Below the pieces are notes generated by a model. It saw only the letters and a list, made by a program, of their open reading frames with translations. It had not been told where the DNA came from and ran no database searches. 64,000 nt of DNA, taken from contig JAGGYW010000020.1 in NCBI GenBank assembly GCA_021162365.1, forward strand, positions 9,154 to 73,153, given 5' to 3'. Numbering within the stretch: position 1 is the stretch's first letter; each line of letters starts with the position of its first letter. The DNA comes from Nanobdellota archaeon. GTDB lineage: Archaea; Nanobdellota; Nanobdellia; CSSed11-243R1. This document shows, in pieces, positions 3,001 through 54,880 of the stretch. A program made the translations under genes and the position numbers.

Positions 3001-5396
3001 GTCAAGTGTTTGGTAGGGGTGAAGTTCATATTAATGCGAGTTCAACGTGCCCTACCTCCCTTATTTCTCAGGTTTCATTTAAGCTTTTCAATTCAACAGG
3101 TGGGTTGGTGAAAAGCGGTAATTTAACAAAAGTTGTTGGAACATTCTATTGGAATACTTCATTTGATACAGCCAATCTAGCTTCTGGGGATTACATTCTA
3201 AATGTGACATCTGTTAATTCGCTAGGTAAATTGAGCTATGCTACGCGGGCAATAGTTATTGATGGTATTTCGCCAAATGTTATAATTCACACAAGTTACC
3301 CACAAAATTCTAGCACGCCTTATTTTAATTTCACAGCAACAGATGATCATAATCTAAGTTATGTATGGTATAAACTTAATGGAGTCGATGTTGCGAAGTA
3401 TCCTGCAAGCGGAACTTCTTTTTCAAGGAATGATACGCTTAATTTAAACTATCCCGGATGGAATTATGTTAAAATCTATGTAAATGATACCTCAAATAAT
3501 ACAATTAGTCGTATAAAAGAGTTTTATGAAATCTCTAAGATGAATGCAACTAAATGGGTGGATGAACACAACGCAACAATCTCCCCGAGTGGAGATGCAA
3601 TATGGAACAATCAAACATTTAACATATCTTTAAGTACAACACACTTTAACGTTACATTATATGATGTCAATGGAGAGCATGTTTGGTGGGATTATGATTT
3701 CTCTTTTGAGGAGAACAACACTGCCTTGAATAATATCACAGAAGATTATGGATTGACTCCCTACATAAACCTTTATCTTGATGAGAATTTAATTAGAGAT
3801 ACCATTTGCGATGGGGCTAACTGCGAGAATCTTACGAATAACGATTACGCAGAGGTTACCTTCTCTCCTAATTCGACAGGATATTATGCTATATACTCCT
3901 GTGGCAGGGGGATTCCAAGCGACTTTTCTTCATGTGAAAAGTTGGATGAATGTAACTCAACAAACAACATGAATTGTTATAATGATACTCCAACGAAAAC
4001 AATTGTTTACCTAAGTCGATTTTCGACATTAGTTGTAGTGAATGACACTACTCCGCCAAATGTTACTATAAATTCGCCAGAAGATAAAGCATATGATATA
4101 AGTAGTGGAATTTTGGTTAACGTTAGTTCTTCTCCAGATACAGTTGTATGTAATTATTCCATCGACAATGGAGCAAATAGTTCATTATCTAAGAATGGAG
4201 ATTATTTCATATCTACATTTGGTCCGATAAAAAATGGAAACCATAACCTGACTGTGTATTGTTGGGATGGTGCAGGTAATTTAGGGAATGATAGTGTTGA
4301 TTTCACAATTTATGATACTAACGCACCTTCAGTAAGTAGTGTGATTACGGATACTTCTAAGACAGCTGTGGAAATAGACTGGACAACAAATGAACCCTCA
4401 GATGGGAAAGTGACTCTTTATTCTGATAGTGCTTGTGGAAGTGAAAAGACATATAAAACAAGCAACACAATGTCACAGGCGCACTCACTAACGTTCGAGG
4501 ATTTATCCCCTGCTACAGATTACAGTTTTAAGGTCACATCAACTGATTATCAGGGAAATGAAGGCACTTCAATATGTTATACCTTTACAACAGATCCTCT
4601 TGAATCTCAGTCAGATGAAGGTGGAGGGGGTGGAGGAAATAGAACAACACAAACAGTAAGGGAAACTTTCTTCTGGAGCACTATCTCTCAAGGGGAGAGC
4701 GTTGTAGCAGATGTCAGAAGTGAATACATACCTGTAGATTCTTTAGAAATTTATTTGTCGAGTGAGATGATTAATGCAAAGTTGGAAGTCGAGTCCTATG
4801 ATGATAATCCACCACCAGGTGTACCTGAAGCACCCGTAGACATAATATACAAGTACTTTGGGATATCCACCAATTTTAATCAATACATAAATTGGATAAA
4901 GATAAAAATTAAAGTTCCAGCAAGTTGGTTTACTAACAATAACTATGACCCCAACAATGTTAGTTTGTATCATTACAGTTATATTTCTGAGAGGTGGGAA
5001 GAGGAGAATATAACTTATCTTGGTGAGTCAGATGGATATCACTTATATAGTGCCATAGTAAATAGCTTGTCTCCTTTTGCCATTTCTGCCGCAGAGCTTG
5101 AAGTCAAAGAATATTGTGGTAATGGAATATGTAACCAAAGTGCTGGCGAAAATTGTTCCACTTGCGAGGTAGATTGCGGGCTTTGTTTAACTAAAATCAT
5201 AAAAAATGAAACGCAAGGCAATTACACGGCAAGTTCCAACATTACTCCTCCCGAGAGCAATAATAACTTTGAAGTTGGATATTTTGAATATGTATTGATA
5301 GGTGTTGCTGTGGGGATAATTGGATTTTTTGTTATTCAGTTTAAATTACTGTCGAGGATGGAAAGACCAAAAAGAAAGAAGAGAAAGAGGCGATGA
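1..5396 (+). CDS. Surface-anchored subtilisin-like (S8) serine protease, 5'-partial (reading frame open to window start; ORF track start at 75 is an internal GTG)
   Basis: Catalytic triad motifs DTGVNYSHP (Asp), HGTHVAGII (His), GTSMATPHVSGA (Ser). Upstream I9-like propeptide. At least 4 N-terminal ~100-aa PPC-like repeats (pattern YYF..S...DG....SF.F.S..DYFKF.A.AG..Y.I.T.N.....DTYL.L.D..G.....NDD). Multiple Ig/FN3-like beta domains downstream. C-terminal TM helix followed by basic tail PKRKKRKRR. Very many N-x-S/T sequons. No stop codon in frame between nt 3 and 75. Confidence 0.85.
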   Translation, partial: TFHSGTDIDWIKFECIQNESYNISVSDLNIYIQVYVPDGSSLSLDSFNYYYDGSSYNIKSSKVVFYCSENSTVYVKLEYKYYATATYTVSVINTSVPANEWDNYYFNASSISTDGTLVSKSFSFFSNDKDYFKFDATAGSIYVIETNNESANVDTYLTLFDTDGKTIIKENDDASVYLNSRIVWKCPSDDTYYIRVWDRYGREGDYTLKVYSPTITSLQTDGTNVGKTFSNGDAHYFSFSATTGNRYIIKTINTSASTDTYLKVYNSTFDLVQYNDDTYYTGLQDKNSLTTIYATNTDTYYVEVSDYYVAGGSYDISVDSNVPTKYNDNFEVDDDFALSNSISVDGTPQTHSFYYYGESDFVNFSAIAGNTYRIKTDNIGGRIVDTYLVLYDSSHKLIDYNDDIGSSCSLTNIDDCLSEIDFTPDTSGVYYLKIWDISSAGNNYTLSVEQNGTITTTLVTPSADVNVTKTGIFEFTVNVSCSGGSCGDVSVYLDPKYSDKVVEKKVYASKELPTTRGRYIVILKNPSSEFSTSSVSSDVKSLQKKFLDTAPDLKVVREYSSFPLLSVELTGEQLSALKDNPYILDVVPDRVFHATLDESVPQIKANDTWNVQYANTNITGLYQTVCILDTGVNYSHPALAHAYLGGYDFVNNDSDPMDDSTGKAYSHGTHVAGIIVSNDTIYRGVAPNAKFVAIKVLNSVGGGQASDILAGIDWCINHSSQYNISVISMSLGTEGVGWNDTTSCEQDNKEWIDPIQTAVSNGIAVVAASGNDGFSDKINAPACLGDVISVGAVDKSDEVTSYSNAASILDLLAPGSEINSTCRNCGFMSMSGTSMATPHVSGAILLLNQYEKLRLGRNLKPDEALNYLKSSGKSILDPRNGLSFPRVDVLAAVELMNGTKDLVPMDSGTPFFTTTHPQYTNTSQNPFTNTCLSNMKDGDSCFVTWVVNATGAEDTTWEFYAESKGNFAGSELDSISSKVNVTIIADDLPPNVVIISPLDSQVFGRGEVHINASSTCPTSLISQVSFKLFNSTGGLVKSGNLTKVVGTFYWNTSFDTANLASGDYILNVTSVNSLGKLSYATRAIVIDGISPNVIIHTSYPQNSSTPYFNFTATDDHNLSYVWYKLNGVDVAKYPASGTSFSRNDTLNLNYPGWNYVKIYVNDTSNNTISRIKEFYEISKMNATKWVDEHNATISPSGDAIWNNQTFNISLSTTHFNVTLYDVNGEHVWWDYDFSFEENNTALNNITEDYGLTPYINLYLDENLIRDTICDGANCENLTNNDYAEVTFSPNSTGYYAIYSCGRGIPSDFSSCEKLDECNSTNNMNCYNDTPTKTIVYLSRFSTLVVVNDTTPPNVTINSPEDKAYDISSGILVNVSSSPDTVVCNYSIDNGANSSLSKNGDYFISTFGPIKNGNHNLTVYCWDGAGNLGNDSVDFTIYDTNAPSVSSVITDTSKTAVEIDWTTNEPSDGKVTLYSDSACGSEKTYKTSNTMSQAHSLTFEDLSPATDYSFKVTSTDYQGNEGTSICYTFTTDPLESQSDEGGGGGGNRTTQTVRETFFWSTISQGESVVADVRSEYIPVDSLEIYLSSEMINAKLEVESYDDNPPPGVPEAPVDIIYKYFGISTNFNQYINWIKIKIKVPASWFTNNNYDPNNVSLYHYSYISERWEEENITYLGESDGYHLYSAIVNSLSPFAISAAELEVKEYCGNGICNQSAGENCSTCEVDCGLCLTKIIKNETQGNYTASSNITPPESNNNFEVGYFEYVLIGVAVGIIGFFVIQFKLLSRMERPKRKKRKRR

Positions 5397-52047: not shown

Positions 52048-52104
52048 AAAATATCTACACGTGGTTGTGAGTTATATTTTAGTGGAAAAAGTGGACAACA
52101 TCTC

Positions 52105-52878
52105 TTGAAATTAATAAATCACTATTTGGTTTCAAATGACATGGATTATATCATCTCAGAGCTTGCTGGTGCTATTGTTGGTGACGGACATATTGTTGAC
52201 AATAGAAAATATTCTTTGTATATCTATGGGAATGCGACGGAAGATTTTTGTTATTTGAGATATTTGTCGTCTCATTTTGAAAAGTTATTTGGCATATCTC
52301 CAAGGTTAGGTATAAGAGTATATAAAAATGGGCGTGCCGCGATATTACAAATCCACAATAAAGATGTCGTAAGATTTTTTACTAAAGTGGTTGGGATCCC
52401 CGCTGGAAACAAAATATACTCAGTGAGCATACCAAGTTTTGTAGATGAAAGTAATATCAAGTATTTTGTAAGGGGGTTATTCGACACGGATGGGTGTATA
52501 GTATTTACGAAGTCTAAAACGAATTCTCTATTTCCTACCTATCCGAGAATTGAAATAAAGACATCTAGTGGTAAGTTGAGTTCACAACTAATAGATGTGT
52601 TAAACAATATAGGGTTTAAAGTAAACTTACGAAGAGATGGAACTTCAAACATAATATACGTTAGTGGAAATCTCCAGGTTGATAAGTGGTTTGGGGAAAT
52701 TGGTTCGAGTAATTTAAAAAATCTAGTTAAGTTCCAATTTTGGAGGTGCTTTGGGTATCACTTGCCTGGATTAGACGTAGGATCTAGATTAAAAATATTA
52801 AAGCGGGCGGGGAGAGTCGAACTCCCTTCTACCGGTGACTGCCAATCATTGCTTAAACAGCTCATCTCACCGAGTTAG
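52105..52878 (+). CDS. Free-standing double-motif LAGLIDADG homing endonuclease
   Basis: Two LAGLIDADG motifs about 100 aa apart (ISELAGAIVGDGHI and FVRGLFDTDGCIV), as in single-chain enzymes like I-DmoI. The last ~25 codons run antisense across the tRNA gene and are probably read-through. Confidence 0.7.
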   Translation: MKLINHYLVSNDMDYIISELAGAIVGDGHIVDNRKYSLYIYGNATEDFCYLRYLSSHFEKLFGISPRLGIRVYKNGRAAILQIHNKDVVRFFTKVVGIPAGNKIYSVSIPSFVDESNIKYFVRGLFDTDGCIVFTKSKTNSLFPTYPRIEIKTSSGKLSSQLIDVLNNIGFKVNLRRDGTSNIIYVSGNLQVDKWFGEIGSSNLKNLVKFQFWRCFGYHLPGLDVGSRLKILKRAGRVELPSTGDCQSLLKQLISPS

Positions 52879-52936
52879 ACCGACTGCAGCTTCGACTCCA
52901 AGTGGAACGGTCGCATAGCCGGTCTGCCACGCCCGC
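52802..52936 (-). tRNA. tRNA gene with about 55-60 nt of inserted intron sequence; isotype unresolved (a UUCCACU loop after a GACCG stem could indicate anticodon CCA/Trp, unconfirmed)
   Basis: Minus-strand transcript begins GCGGGCG-U. It ends GGGAG-UUCGACU-CUCCC-CGCCCGC-U: canonical T-arm with TPsiCGA-like loop, plus a perfect 7-bp acceptor stem. About 103 nt lie between the acceptor 5' strand and the T-arm where about 41 are expected. CCA is not encoded. Confidence 0.6.
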
Positions 52937-52976
52937 ACAACTGAAACTAAATGGCTTTGTTTTAAATTCTTTTTCT

Positions 52977-53414
52977 TTAATCAAGAATTGTTTCTAATTG
53001 TGGTTCTTTTTGTGTTATATAAAATTTAAATCTCCCAATATTGTTTTTTACTATTTTTATAGACATATCTATTATTCTTTCACATTCCCCAGGAAAAGAT
53101 GGGATAATTTGCCTGCTGGCGTACCCTCCTGGCTTAACCTTTCTGTGGACTTCTTCATATACCTCGGGATGTTGATTTAAAAATGATTTGAATTTTTTCC
53201 TGTGTATTGGACTCCATTTTTTTTCAGAATCTTTGTAATCCTCAAATAGCCCCATTCCAATTATTGCTTGAACCAAATTATCATAAAATTCATTAACATT
53301 GTTAATCCCAAATTCCTTAGATTCAGTCACAGCACCATACTCGGTCATTACTTTTATGTATATATCTATAAATGGCGTGCATCTGGCTTTTACATGCTCA
53401 TAAACAGTAACCAA
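52977..53414 (-). CDS. Hypothetical protein
   Basis: 145-aa ORF with good coding bias; no family recognised. Confidence 0.35.
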   Translation of the reverse strand: MVTVYEHVKARCTPFIDIYIKVMTEYGAVTESKEFGINNVNEFYDNLVQAIIGMGLFEDYKDSEKKWSPIHRKKFKSFLNQHPEVYEEVHRKVKPGGYASRQIIPSFPGECERIIDMSIKIVKNNIGRFKFYITQKEPQLETILD

Positions 53415-53458
53415 TTTTTTACACCCCCTTGTGAAGTCAATTAAGCGTTAGTCATTTT

Positions 53459-54880
53459 TTAAATTCTTTTTCTTAACTTTGGACCATCTGGGGTATCCTG
53501 TAACTCCCATCCCATTTCACGAATTTTCTCACGAATTTCATCCGCTTTTCTAAAGTCTTTTTTCTTTCTTGCTTCTTCCCTTTCTTCAACGAGTTTTTTT
53601 ATCTCTTCAGGAACCTCAGCTTTCTCATGTTCTAAAATCCCAAGCACTTTGTCAAACTCAAGCATAACCTCTTTTACCTCTTTAGCATTTTTTTCTCCAA
53701 ATTTGTTATCTGCAATTAATTTATTAATCTCAGACACAAATTCATGAATTGCTGCCATTGCAAGTGGCACATTCAAATCATCATCCATAGCTTCTTCAAA
53801 TTTTTTCTTTGCGTCAGCAATTAGTTCTTTTACTTTCTCATTGTATATCCCTTCATTAATCTCATCAAGTTTTTCCATAAATTCTATCAATCGATTCACT
53901 GTTGTTTCTGCATCTTTCAAACCTTCAAATGTAAAGTTCAGCTGCGAGCGGTAGTGCGCATTCATTAAGAGGTATCTAACTGCCTTTGGTGAATATCCTT
54001 TTGCCAAAACATCACGGAGGGTGTAAAAGTTATTATATCTCTTTGACATCTTCTTTCCTTCTACAAGCACCCACTCATTGTGGAACCAGTATCTAACAAA
54101 CTGCTTTCCGGTTGCTGCCTCGCTTTGTGCAATTTCGTTTTCGTGGTGCGGAAATATTAAATCAACACCCCCAGCATGGATATCTAAAGTTTCTCCAAGG
54201 TATTTCATGCTCATAGCTGAACATTCAATGTGCCAACCTGGGCGCCCGCGAATTGTTTCTTCTTTTCCATCAATGGTAAACTTCACATTCCAGAAAACAT
54301 CTCCATCTTCCGGCGTCCATGCTTTCCAAAGCGCGAAGTCATTAGCTTCTTCTTTCTCATATTCATCTTGTTTTACCCTTGCCCCCACCTTTAACTCGCT
54401 AACTTTTATGCCCGAAAGCTTTCCATATTCTTTGAACTTGGAAACATCATAGTATATTGAGTTATCTTCTCCTTTATAAGCAAAGCCTTTGTCAATTAAG
54501 GTTTGAATTAGTTTTCTCATATCTTCTATGTGTTCAGTTGCTTTTGCATAAACATCTGCGGGCAAAAGATTAAGCTTCTTTGAATCTTCAAAAAATGCTT
54601 TGGTATATCTTTCTGTGAATTCTTTTAGCGAAATCCCTTCTTTTTGACTATCTCTAATGGTTTTGTCATCTACATCTGTTAAGTTCATGACATGCTTTAC
54701 ACTATATCCTTTGTAAAGAAGATACCTTTTGAGTATATCTTGTGCAACATAACTCCTAAAGTTTCCAATATGAGCATAATTGTAAACAGTAGGCCCGCAA
54801 GTATATAATCTCACCAATTTGTCTTCAAGTGGCTTAAATTCTTCCTTTTTTCTTCCAAGAGTGTTAAATAAAACTAACAT
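53459..54880 (-). CDS. cysS: Cysteinyl-tRNA synthetase
   Basis: CGPTVYNYAHIGNFRS (HIGH-type), zinc-binding Cys residues, KMSKR (KMSKS), and anticodon-binding C-terminal domain; 473 aa. Confidence 0.9.
   Translation of the reverse strand: MLVLFNTLGRKKEEFKPLEDKLVRLYTCGPTVYNYAHIGNFRSYVAQDILKRYLLYKGYSVKHVMNLTDVDDKTIRDSQKEGISLKEFTERYTKAFFEDSKKLNLLPADVYAKATEHIEDMRKLIQTLIDKGFAYKGEDNSIYYDVSKFKEYGKLSGIKVSELKVGARVKQDEYEKEEANDFALWKAWTPEDGDVFWNVKFTIDGKEETIRGRPGWHIECSAMSMKYLGETLDIHAGGVDLIFPHHENEIAQSEAATGKQFVRYWFHNEWVLVEGKKMSKRYNNFYTLRDVLAKGYSPKAVRYLLMNAHYRSQLNFTFEGLKDAETTVNRLIEFMEKLDEINEGIYNEKVKELIADAKKKFEEAMDDDLNVPLAMAAIHEFVSEINKLIADNKFGEKNAKEVKEVMLEFDKVLGILEHEKAEVPEEIKKLVEEREEARKKKDFRKADEIREKIREMGWELQDTPDGPKLRKRI

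Follow-up and report, generated by a model that had tools for sequence, protein, structure and literature searches.

Free-standing homing endonuclease genes are known from phages, where they include seg and mob of T4, with SegB located in the T4 tRNA gene cluster, and F-CphI beside an intron of psbA. This class of genes has been reviewed (PMC3943268; PMC3984707). In archaea, tRNA genes with multiple introns or introns at non-canonical positions, bounded by bulge-helix-bulge (BHB) motifs, were documented in Crenarchaeota (Thermoproteales), Nanoarchaeum equitans and ARMAN-2, and splicing endonucleases of the (αβ)2 and ε2 types cut such non-canonical introns (PMC4090602; PMC4033280; PMC3239211). 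Here we describe a locus of a Nanobdellota archaeon where a tRNA gene on the minus strand is overlapped on the opposite strand by an open reading frame (ORF) for a LAGLIDADG homing endonuclease. It is contained in a stretch of 64,000 nucleotides (nt) with a G+C content of about 35% (contig JAGGYW010000020.1 of assembly GCA_021162365.1, positions 9,154 to 73,153), hereafter the window, whose coordinates are used throughout. We consider it probable that the two elements are independent neighbours, namely a tRNA-Cys gene with two introns and a cassette carrying a free-standing homing endonuclease from a family that resides at tRNA gene borders.

The tRNA gene is recognizable by its ends. If the minus strand is read from 52936 to 52803, a perfect 7-bp acceptor stem (GCGGGCG/CGCCCGC) and a T arm (GGGAG-UUCGACU-CUCCC) are evident, as had been noted in an earlier reading of the bare sequence by a model (the original prediction). 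We number the gene from nt 1 at 52936, so that a window coordinate equals 52937 minus the nt number, which places the discriminator U as nt 135 at 52802. The body of 134 nt exceeds tRNA length by about 64 nt. When both strands of the window were searched for a 7-bp acceptor stem combined with a T arm, this site alone was identified; the custom tRNA-ends finder used for this purpose yielded false positives in 2 of 327 control windows of 700 nt elsewhere. ARAGORN at default settings found no tRNA over the 64 kb and Rfam gave no match in the window at the gathering score; the E-value mode of the latter returned just a match to tRNA-Sec of 18 bits over the 3' part of the gene. ARAGORN with option -i reports one tRNA, c[52802,52936], with a wrong single intron of 66 nt and an unstable anticodon call, which is Glu CUC or, if the intron is forced to position 37/38, Trp CCA. 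Neither ARAGORN and Rfam nor the tRNA-ends finder detected a tRNA other than tRNA-Cys in the window.

On the basis of its sequence, the minus-strand gene is a tRNA-Cys(GCA), predicted to be interrupted by two BHB introns and organized as follows.

52803..52936, minus strand: tRNA-Cys(GCA) gene of 134 nt, identified from the reading of acceptor stem and T arm, the ARAGORN call of the spliced form, the unique solution combining BHB motifs with a cloverleaf, and homologues
52908..52936, minus strand: exon 1 (nt 1-29), with the 5' strand of the acceptor stem, U8, G9, D arm, G26 and positions 27-30 (ACCG)
52891..52907, minus strand: intron 1 of 17 nt (nt 30-46) at the non-canonical position 30/31, inside the anticodon stem
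52884..52890, minus strand: exon 2 (nt 47-53), with G31 followed by C32 U33 G34 C35 A36 G37, invariant in all relatives
52837..52883, minus strand: intron 2 of 47 nt (nt 54-100) at the canonical position 37/38
52803..52836, minus strand: exon 3 (nt 101-134), with A38, CCGGU, the variable loop AGAA, T arm and the 3' strand of the acceptor stem

Joining nt 1-29, 47-53 and 101-134 leads to a 70-nt cloverleaf with the sequence GCGGGCG-UG-GCAG-ACCGGCU-AUGC-G-ACCGG-CUGCAGA-CCGGU-AGAA-GGGAG-UUCGACU-CUCCC-CGCCCGC, which satisfies a strict in-house cloverleaf test and contains a 7-bp acceptor stem, a D arm (GCAG-ACCGGCU-AUGC), a 5-bp anticodon stem, a 7-nt loop with U33 and G37, and a 5-bp T stem. C48-U-G-C-A-G53 is part of a textbook tRNA-Cys anticodon loop (CUGCAGA), where the anticodon GCA is located at 52885-52887. 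The combination of GCA in a 7-nt loop, G37 and the discriminator U73 is as expected for tRNA-Cys, U73 and GCA being identity elements of cysteinyl-tRNA synthetase (CysRS). With default settings, ARAGORN recognizes the doubly spliced sequence as tRNA-Cys(GCA), both for the window and for the related locus L001. The proposal that the over-long body reflects an intron-bearing tRNA, possibly with introns at non-canonical positions, is thus borne out by the clean cloverleaf obtained once both introns are removed and by the location of one of the two at 30/31. The same does not hold for the claim that a D arm could not be drawn directly after U8 without splicing, as one can be drawn after U8-G9 (GCA/UGC plus G13·A22).

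Both introns are bounded by strict 3-4-3 BHB motifs with predicted cleavage after the second nucleotide of each 3-nt bulge, where an archaeal splicing endonuclease would cut; ligation would then generate the 70-nt tRNA. The motif of intron 1 consists of a central helix C24GAC27/G41UCG44, the bulges CG|U and AA|G and an inner helix UCC/GGA closed by a 4-nt loop, with a weak outer helix of 1 bp. In the motif of intron 2, a central helix C48UGC51/G95CAG98 is flanked by the bulges AG|U and UC|A, the inner helix is formed by nt 55-59 and 90-94, and the outer helix is the anticodon stem itself, which is complete only after removal of intron 1. To this motif also belongs one of two near-identical segments that the original prediction had described as reminiscent of exon/intron boundary mimicry in BHB motifs. 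Both segments are present (UGGCAGACCGG at nt 8-18 and UGGCAGUCACCGG at nt 93-105) and the second does lie in the intron-2 BHB, but the repeat is not conserved, the second copy reading GUGGUCACCGG in L001. Since this copy is the 3' half of the motif, containing GCAG, which pairs with CUGC of the anticodon loop, the bulge UCA and the anticodon-stem strand CCGG, the resemblance of the two segments is a by-product.

The assignment of both introns was put to an unbiased test by removing all strict 3-4-3 BHB candidates (178 in the window and 184 in L001), either singly or in non-overlapping pairs. A strict cloverleaf resulted from exactly 1 of 4671 combinations in the window and from 3 of 5052 in L001, and the sole solution common to both removes nt 30-46 together with nt 54-100 (54-98 in L001). 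Acceptance by ARAGORN was rejected as a criterion for the splice pattern, as it offers no discrimination: 29,730 distinct products were accepted from 259,078 deletions of one or two introns, its score being dominated by the good acceptor stem and T arm.

Related loci were reached by two routes, L001, which carries the tRNA on the opposite strand, through P0002, a LAGLIDADG homologue with 57% identity, and L116/L117 (GCA_027007025.1), L118 and L119 through homologues of the GILT-like protein encoded in the neighbourhood. The two-intron tRNA-Cys is also found in L001, L116/L117 and L118. In a four-way alignment of the window, L001, L116 and L118, the exons are invariant except for positions 15 and 48 and one wobble in the T stem; the loop of intron 1 and the interior of intron 2 vary. 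Position 15 (52922) is C in the window and U in the three relatives, and position 48 (52827) is A in the window and G in the others. These are the only two exon substitutions on the branch of the window and concern the Levitt tertiary pair of tRNAs in general; their joint change on one branch is, as a single event, suggestive only. The central helix of intron 2 is retained in L001 by two G·U pairs, and in its inner helix G·U pairs are exchanged for A-U or G-C between relatives. L119, the outgroup by identity of its GILT-like protein (about 60%), contains a tRNA-Cys with the same D arm, CUGCAGA loop and U73 and a single canonical intron of 35 nt. As this outgroup has no intron at 30/31, the latter is a clade-specific gain. 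CysRS adjoins tRNA-Cys in the window, in L116/L117 and in L119, and in both latter cases the tRNA is found just downstream of CysRS (at a distance of about 40 nt in L116). The tRNA-Cys of L119 is located at 5083-5217 of its minus strand, and its intron (AACGGAUCUUGCUGAUUAAAAGAUGAUGUGAAGAG) contains the strings CUGA and GAUGAUG, reminiscent of boxes D' and C'. A scan of metagenomes with the 24-mer GGGAGTTCGACTCTCCCCGCCCGC, taken from the T arm and the acceptor stem (3' strand), returned 32 loci and no relative of this tRNA-Cys; all were other tRNAs, mostly with encoded CCA ends and several of them evidently tRNA-Leu.

Against this comparison, we weighed the single-intron models reported by ARAGORN with options -i and -if, in which one 66-nt intron would reside in the anticodon loop of a tRNA-Trp(CCA) or tRNA-Glu(CUC) and might serve as a box C/D guide as in euryarchaeal pre-tRNA-Trp. 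Strings resembling C'/D' boxes, namely the D'-like [A/C]UGA at nt 72-75 and AUGAU at nt 88-92, agree with this view. The models, however, need a G·A pair (27-43) to close an anticodon stem of 4 bp, lack nucleotide 26 and leave 3 nt for the variable loop, and no BHB can be drawn at their junctions. In the Trp model, position 37 is a pyrimidine and the 'CCA' anticodon reads CCU in L116/L117 and L118, and in either model the discriminator is U, as expected for Cys. We thus attribute next to no probability to a single-intron gene. Readings of nt 69-93 as a box C/D guide intron or a K-turn were rejected, as the motifs are partial and no terminal C (RUGAUGA) or D (CUGA) boxes are present; AUGAU is explained as the 3' strand of the inner helix of intron 2.

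We also considered the folding of the precursor by nearest-neighbour energies, which ignore tertiary contacts and proteins. For the full-length precursor, the predicted fold of minimum free energy (MFE) differs from the fold competent for splicing. Common to all four relatives is a helix (H1) between nt 13-20 of exon 1 and nt 52-59 of intron 2, whose pair 15-57 is C-G, U-A, U·G and U-A across the four sequences, and in a second helix (H2) nt 64-70 of intron 2 pair with nt 99-105 across the 3' junction. The extents of this alternative fold are 52877-52925 (nt 12-60) and 52832-52873 (nt 64-105). Together with the acceptor stem and T arm, both helices would form a pseudo-cloverleaf exposing the BHB of intron 1 and hiding that of intron 2. 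The intron-1 BHB is located at the tip of the H1 arm, in a conformer 2-4 kcal/mol above the MFE, whereas the conformer with the intron-2 BHB lies 15-20 kcal/mol above the MFE in presence of intron 1 and 7.6-9.3 kcal/mol in its absence. From the exposure of one motif and the concealment of the other in these models, we infer an ordered process, where intron 1 would be spliced first and refolding would subsequently form the anticodon stem and the BHB of intron 2. A third helix (H3, nt 76-80 with 95-99) shows three compensatory changes between the window and L001 and was discarded due to mismatches in L116 and L118.

That the predicted MFE fold is not competent for splicing, and that default tRNA finders and Rfam overlook the gene, is what a decayed, tRNA-like pseudogene would lead one to expect. 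This possibility appears most improbable in light of exons that are near-invariant in four genomes whose neighbouring protein is 73-78% identical and whose intron interiors have diverged. Moreover, both BHB motifs are strictly 3-4-3, the only exon changes on the branch of the window concern the Levitt pair (C15/A48 instead of U15/G48), and the place beside CysRS is conserved.

The second element of the locus is encoded on the plus strand and comprises the following features.

52141..52878, plus strand: ORF of the free-standing LAGLIDADG homing endonuclease, from an in-frame ATG at 52141 to the TAG at 52876-52878 inside intron 2
52162..52188, plus strand: LAGLIDADG motif 1 (LAGAIVGDG), catalytic Asp codon at 52183-52185
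52468..52494, plus strand: LAGLIDADG motif 2 (VRGLFDTDG), catalytic Asp codon at 52489-52491
52803..52878, plus strand: read-through tail, roughly KRAGRVELPSTGDCQSLLKQLISPS, antisense to exon 3 and 42 nt of intron 2
52088..52788, plus strand: approximate extent of the endonuclease cassette, with boundaries fuzzy by several nt, from comparison with relatives without the gene

The NCBI model of the gene (J7K73_03585) starts at TTG 52105, resulting in an ORF spanning 52105..52878, although ATG 52141 is the more likely start because of the start positions of homologues. As described in the original prediction, the ORF contains two LAGLIDADG motifs and ends inside the tRNA gene on the opposite strand. 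Its catalytic acidic residues, which could have been lost by disabling mutations, are both present, and in the family alignment A1 the G-D-G of motif 1 is conserved to at least 90% and the R-G...D-G of motif 2 is invariant. The protein matches the Pfam family LAGLIDADG_3 (PF14528; E = 1.8e-11, 44.6 bits compared to a cutoff of 22.5) and a PHROG family annotated as endonuclease. The single sequence matches I-Tsp061I only weakly, whereas a profile of 15 family members does so over nearly its whole length (E = 7.5e-14), followed by intein endonucleases and then I-DmoI. An AlphaFold2 model (pLDDT 90.9, pTM 0.88) displays two α-β-β-α-β-β-α halves, for which Foldseek finds I-Tsp061I, I-DmoI, I-SceI, I-AniI and PI-SceI with a probability of 1.00 and target-length normalized TM-scores of 0.74 to I-Tsp061I (2dch) and about 0.70 to I-DmoI; WhiA and maturases are also among the structural matches. 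I-DmoI, against which the original prediction had proposed a comparison, is recovered by both the family profile and the structural comparison. The ORF is, as judged from these features, an intact two-domain monomeric LAGLIDADG endonuclease with predicted cleavage activity. Over the last 25 or so residues, encoded antisense to the tRNA, the AlphaFold2 confidence falls to 63 and then 52, and homologues end at varying points within their own adjacent tRNAs. This C-terminal tail is best seen as a product of read-through.

The body of the ORF is located in the spacer between the 3' end of the tRNA and the GNAT gene rather than in an intron or intein, and comparison of relatives shows that it can be absent from this place. 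The window and L001 carry the endonuclease gene, whereas L116/L117, L118 and L119 do not at the same tRNA-Cys locus. In L116/L117, the order is GILT, small ORF, GNAT, tRNA-Cys and CysRS, without an endonuclease, and L118 has flanks as in L001 and retains both introns. In pairwise comparison, similarity spans the tRNA and about 10-14 nt of its trailer, breaks and resumes just upstream of the next gene, with L001 containing 816 nt in place of 46 nt in L118. Between the window and L116, the far boundary is marked by the motif TTCCACTAAA[A/G]ATATAA at 52072-52087, upstream of the GNAT gene. The empty sites read ...CTCCCCGCCCGCTTTGCAATTTTCTCTAAAAGG... in L118 and ...CTCTCCGCCCGCTTTCAAATTCTTGCTTCCACTAAAG... 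in L116. The insertion, about 14 nt beyond the 3' end of the tRNA and convergent with the latter, amounts to one gene of about 700 bp along with about 50 nt from upstream of it, and pairwise mapping of the insertions and deletions revealed neither an integrase nor a duplicated piece of the tRNA. The cassette has no stop codon of its own, and its predicted translation therefore runs into the trailer and through 76 nt antisense to the tRNA (52803-52878) up to the TAG in intron 2. As the closest pair by GILT identity (78%), L001 and L118, differ in the presence of the gene, at least two events of gain or loss are required. The endonucleases of the window and L001 are 57% identical, which is below the 74% of the neighbouring gene.

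To place the gene in a wider context, relatives were collected with the motif RG[LI]FDTDG[CS] in one genome per GTDB species. The family comprises at least 463 members, nearly all from DPANN archaea and a few from bacteria of the candidate phyla radiation (CPR), and some genomes carry several copies. Gene borders were analysed for the best 80 loci. In 58 of 78 loci, ARAGORN, run with and without introns, places a tRNA boundary no more than 150 nt from where the ORF match ends; the corresponding counts are 3 of 77 at the start of the ORF and 1-4 of 63-70 when the position is shifted by 1-2 kb. Rfam adds 2 further loci and the tRNA-ends finder 7 with long, probably multi-intron bodies, which brings the total for the 3' side of the ORF to at least 67 of 78, with another two loci running off the contig there. 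Upon re-testing with Rfam, 20 of 20 adjacent tRNAs were confirmed (51-76 bits). A free-standing LAGLIDADG gene abutting an intron-bearing tRNA had been regarded as unusual in the original prediction; within this family, however, adjacency to a tRNA is the rule. Endonuclease and tRNA share a strand in 34 loci and lie on opposite strands in 23, the stop codon is inside the tRNA gene in most cases, and many isoacceptors serve as partners. Median identity of the endonucleases is 55% for pairs next to the same tRNA and 30% for pairs next to different ones, and in 31 of 51 cases the nearest neighbour agrees in the adjacent tRNA as well as in its orientation, a count reached despite the unreliable anticodon calls of ARAGORN for intron-bearing genes. 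Such tracking of the adjacent tRNA by sequence similarity is the behaviour expected of site-faithful homing lineages.

Several members are abutted by long-bodied (94-180 nt) tRNA-like genes with A1-U72, as in archaeal initiator tRNA, with acceptor strands AGCGGGG/CCCCGCU in L006 and L036 and AGCCCCG or AGCCCUG in L016, L017, L020 and L037; ARAGORN and Rfam overlook most of these genes, which are probably further multi-intron tRNAs. In L015 (Aenigmatarchaeota), two opposed tRNA genes, at 3593-3679 on the plus and 3688-3758 on the minus strand, directly follow the end of the endonuclease ORF. Titles naming an 'uncultured Methanosarcinales archaeon' are attached to L004, L007, L013, L014, L023-L025 and others in third-party assemblies, labels that look doubtful, as the closest relatives come from Woesearchaeota-type genomes.

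A derivation of the gene from a mobile tRNA intron, either as degenerated or relocated remnant, as had been suggested, or in a collaborative form of homing where introns protect the carrier, could appeal to its structurally closest archaeal enzymes, I-Tsp061I and I-DmoI, which are encoded in rRNA introns, and to intron-bearing tRNAs being somewhat commoner beside family members (36/61, 59%) than in the comparison set (14/36, 39%). This enrichment is not significant (p = 0.06), and about 40% of the family-adjacent tRNAs contain no intron. At the locus itself, the ORF is located on the strand opposite to the tRNA and past its 3' end, wholly outside the introns save for its read-through tail, and the alleles of L116/L117 and L118 carry both introns unchanged without the gene. 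As the relatives keep their introns in absence of the ORF, the latter is not intron-derived, and we judge such an origin very unlikely.

A different explanation, also touched upon in the original prediction, would view the protein as domesticated for the adjoining tRNA, in the role of either a WhiA-like DNA-binding regulator or an RNA maturase related to bI3 or I-AniI. It could account for intact ORFs being kept in hundreds of DPANN species, for the fixed geometry in which the ORF 3' end always points towards the tRNA, and for same-strand ORFs occupying the place of the would-be tRNA promoter, and it would fit the presence of WhiA and maturases among the structural matches. Domestication is not favoured, because the gene is patchily distributed among close relatives with the same tRNA. 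Besides, the partners include many different tRNAs, several copies are found in some genomes, and catalytic Asp residues, which WhiA-type proteins have lost, are conserved to at least 90%. Taken together, we regard this explanation as unlikely, with a larger residual chance than that left to an intron remnant.

We thus return to a homing gene inserted beside an unrelated intron-bearing tRNA. Most likely, it would spread without involving an intron: the enzyme would cut the empty site beside the tRNA in genomes without the gene, and repair from a gene-bearing copy, with the conserved tRNA as homology arm, would copy the cassette into the break. Since insertion would split the target site, the carrier would be protected. 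As candidate substrate, we propose the point in L118 or L116 where the trailer of tRNA-Cys meets the spacer downstream of it. The orientation of the cassette, with its 3' end facing the tRNA, may reflect that it borrows a stop codon and a terminator from the tRNA gene; alternatively, it could move to new targets by the similarity of tRNA genes on that side. In the window, a T-rich complement of the tRNA promoter is found just past the tRNA on the strand of the ORF. For the family at large, we tentatively propose a 'tRNA-flank homing', in which LAGLIDADG endonucleases of DPANN and some CPR genomes would be specialized in tRNA borders, with each lineage being faithful to one tRNA and orientation and the ORF borrowing a stop codon and perhaps 3'-end processing or termination. 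This generalization is possible, with chances that we place somewhat below even.

Several points weigh against the account given here. Splicing has been predicted, as have its order and the mature tRNA; the BHB of intron 2 does not belong to the lowest-energy predicted fold, and its inner helix is weak in L116, where it contains just 3 bp. With respect to the endonuclease, genomes with and without the gene are only about 73-78% identical in the neighbouring protein, so that the gene need not have moved recently, and an ancestral presence with two subsequent losses is an equally good fit. If the insertion is located about 12-14 nt past the tRNA, a target of 20-22 bp would barely touch the latter. 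Finally, homing alone leaves unexplained why a tRNA is needed as neighbour and why the 3' end of the ORF faces it.

The surroundings of both elements contain a further segment of interest. On the strand of the tRNA, a PALP enzyme, CysRS (53459-54880) and an ORF of 145 amino acids precede tRNA-Cys, which is followed by the LAGLIDADG ORF on the opposite strand, a GNAT acetyltransferase, two small ORFs and the GILT-like thiol reductase. An 18-nt sequence, AAGAAAAAGAATTTAAAA on the strand of the tRNA, is repeated directly and without mismatch at 52960-52977 and 53457-53474, flanking a 497-bp segment between CysRS and tRNA-Cys that contains the 145-residue ORF (52977-53414, minus strand). This ORF is missing from L116/L117 and L119, where CysRS is directly upstream of tRNA-Cys, and in L116 the repeat sequence is present in a single copy covering the CysRS stop codon and the likely TATA box of the tRNA. 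The segment looks like a second insertion with target duplication. Its ORF matches nothing in Pfam or PHROG, and a search of 5.8 billion proteins yielded only 2 homologues. A gene of 237 amino acids beside the homologue in L120 was considered as another endonuclease and rejected in view of its membrane-protein-like sequence and lack of similarity.

These findings have consequences for annotation and for the study of selfish DNA. A tRNA-Cys that is invisible to default finders and Rfam was recovered by a two-intron solution, and such hidden tRNAs would be counted as absent from DPANN genomes, for which a lack of essential functions is suspected already. With empty and filled tRNA-Cys sites in hand, the locus offers a simple system for the persistence of selfish nucleases in tiny symbiont genomes, and its interest derives mostly from this ready pair of sites and the family-level pattern. 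It raises the questions whether tRNA genes serve as target, homology arm or transcript end and how this relates to the heavy disruption of archaeal tRNAs. If true, tRNA-flank homing would be a distinct homing strategy and a candidate pressure on tRNA architecture in reduced genomes. It would then also bear on the long-standing view of tRNA introns and split genes as a defence against tRNA-targeting elements, integrative forms of which are the subject of a hypothesis by Randau and Soll, as cited in PMC4090602.

Compared to known systems, the tRNA-Cys resembles other multi-intron archaeal tRNAs in its short 3-4-3 BHB introns, of which one is located at 37/38 and one elsewhere, in being missed by standard tRNA finders, and in its DPANN setting, where broad-range splicing endonucleases are known. 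It differs from the reviewed cases, among which a tRNA-Cys with introns at 30/31 and 37/38 in this Nanoarchaeota clade was not found, and, as far as seen, from described pre-tRNAs by its conserved fold pairing intron 2 with the D arm and the 3' junction. The endonuclease shares with I-Tsp061I (PDB 2dch) and I-DmoI the two-domain monomeric LAGLIDADG fold and both catalytic acidic residues. However, these enzymes are encoded in BHB introns of rRNA and home into an intron-less rDNA site, whereas the gene described here is located in an intergenic spacer beside a tRNA, in neither intron nor intein, and its product is about 19% identical to them.

Like free-standing endonuclease genes of phages, the gene is inserted between conserved genes, is present or absent at the same position among relatives and would spread by cutting the empty allele and being copied during repair. 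While the phage enzymes are of the GIY-YIG, HNH or other types, this one is a LAGLIDADG protein of cellular DPANN and CPR genomes, whose whole family is bound to tRNA borders and whose ORF is fused into the tRNA without a stop codon of its own. As in integrative elements with attachment sites in tRNA genes, such as SSV-type viruses, a conserved tRNA gene is the landmark for selfish DNA, but there is neither an integrase nor a duplicated 3' fragment of the tRNA, and a single gene of about 700 bp takes the place of an island. It also differs from collaborative homing of the F-CphI type, as alleles free of the endonuclease gene keep both introns unchanged. Group I introns with endonuclease genes in bacterial tRNA genes (PMC13011429) represent another arrangement. 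In the literature, we found no link of free-standing LAGLIDADG genes to DPANN tRNA borders, although coverage is incomplete and this absence is weak evidence. The tRNA-Cys is thus a further case of an already known multi-intron kind, and the endonuclease would be a free-standing homing gene likewise known in kind, for which the occurrence of a LAGLIDADG protein in DPANN with a family-wide tie to tRNA borders appears to be new.

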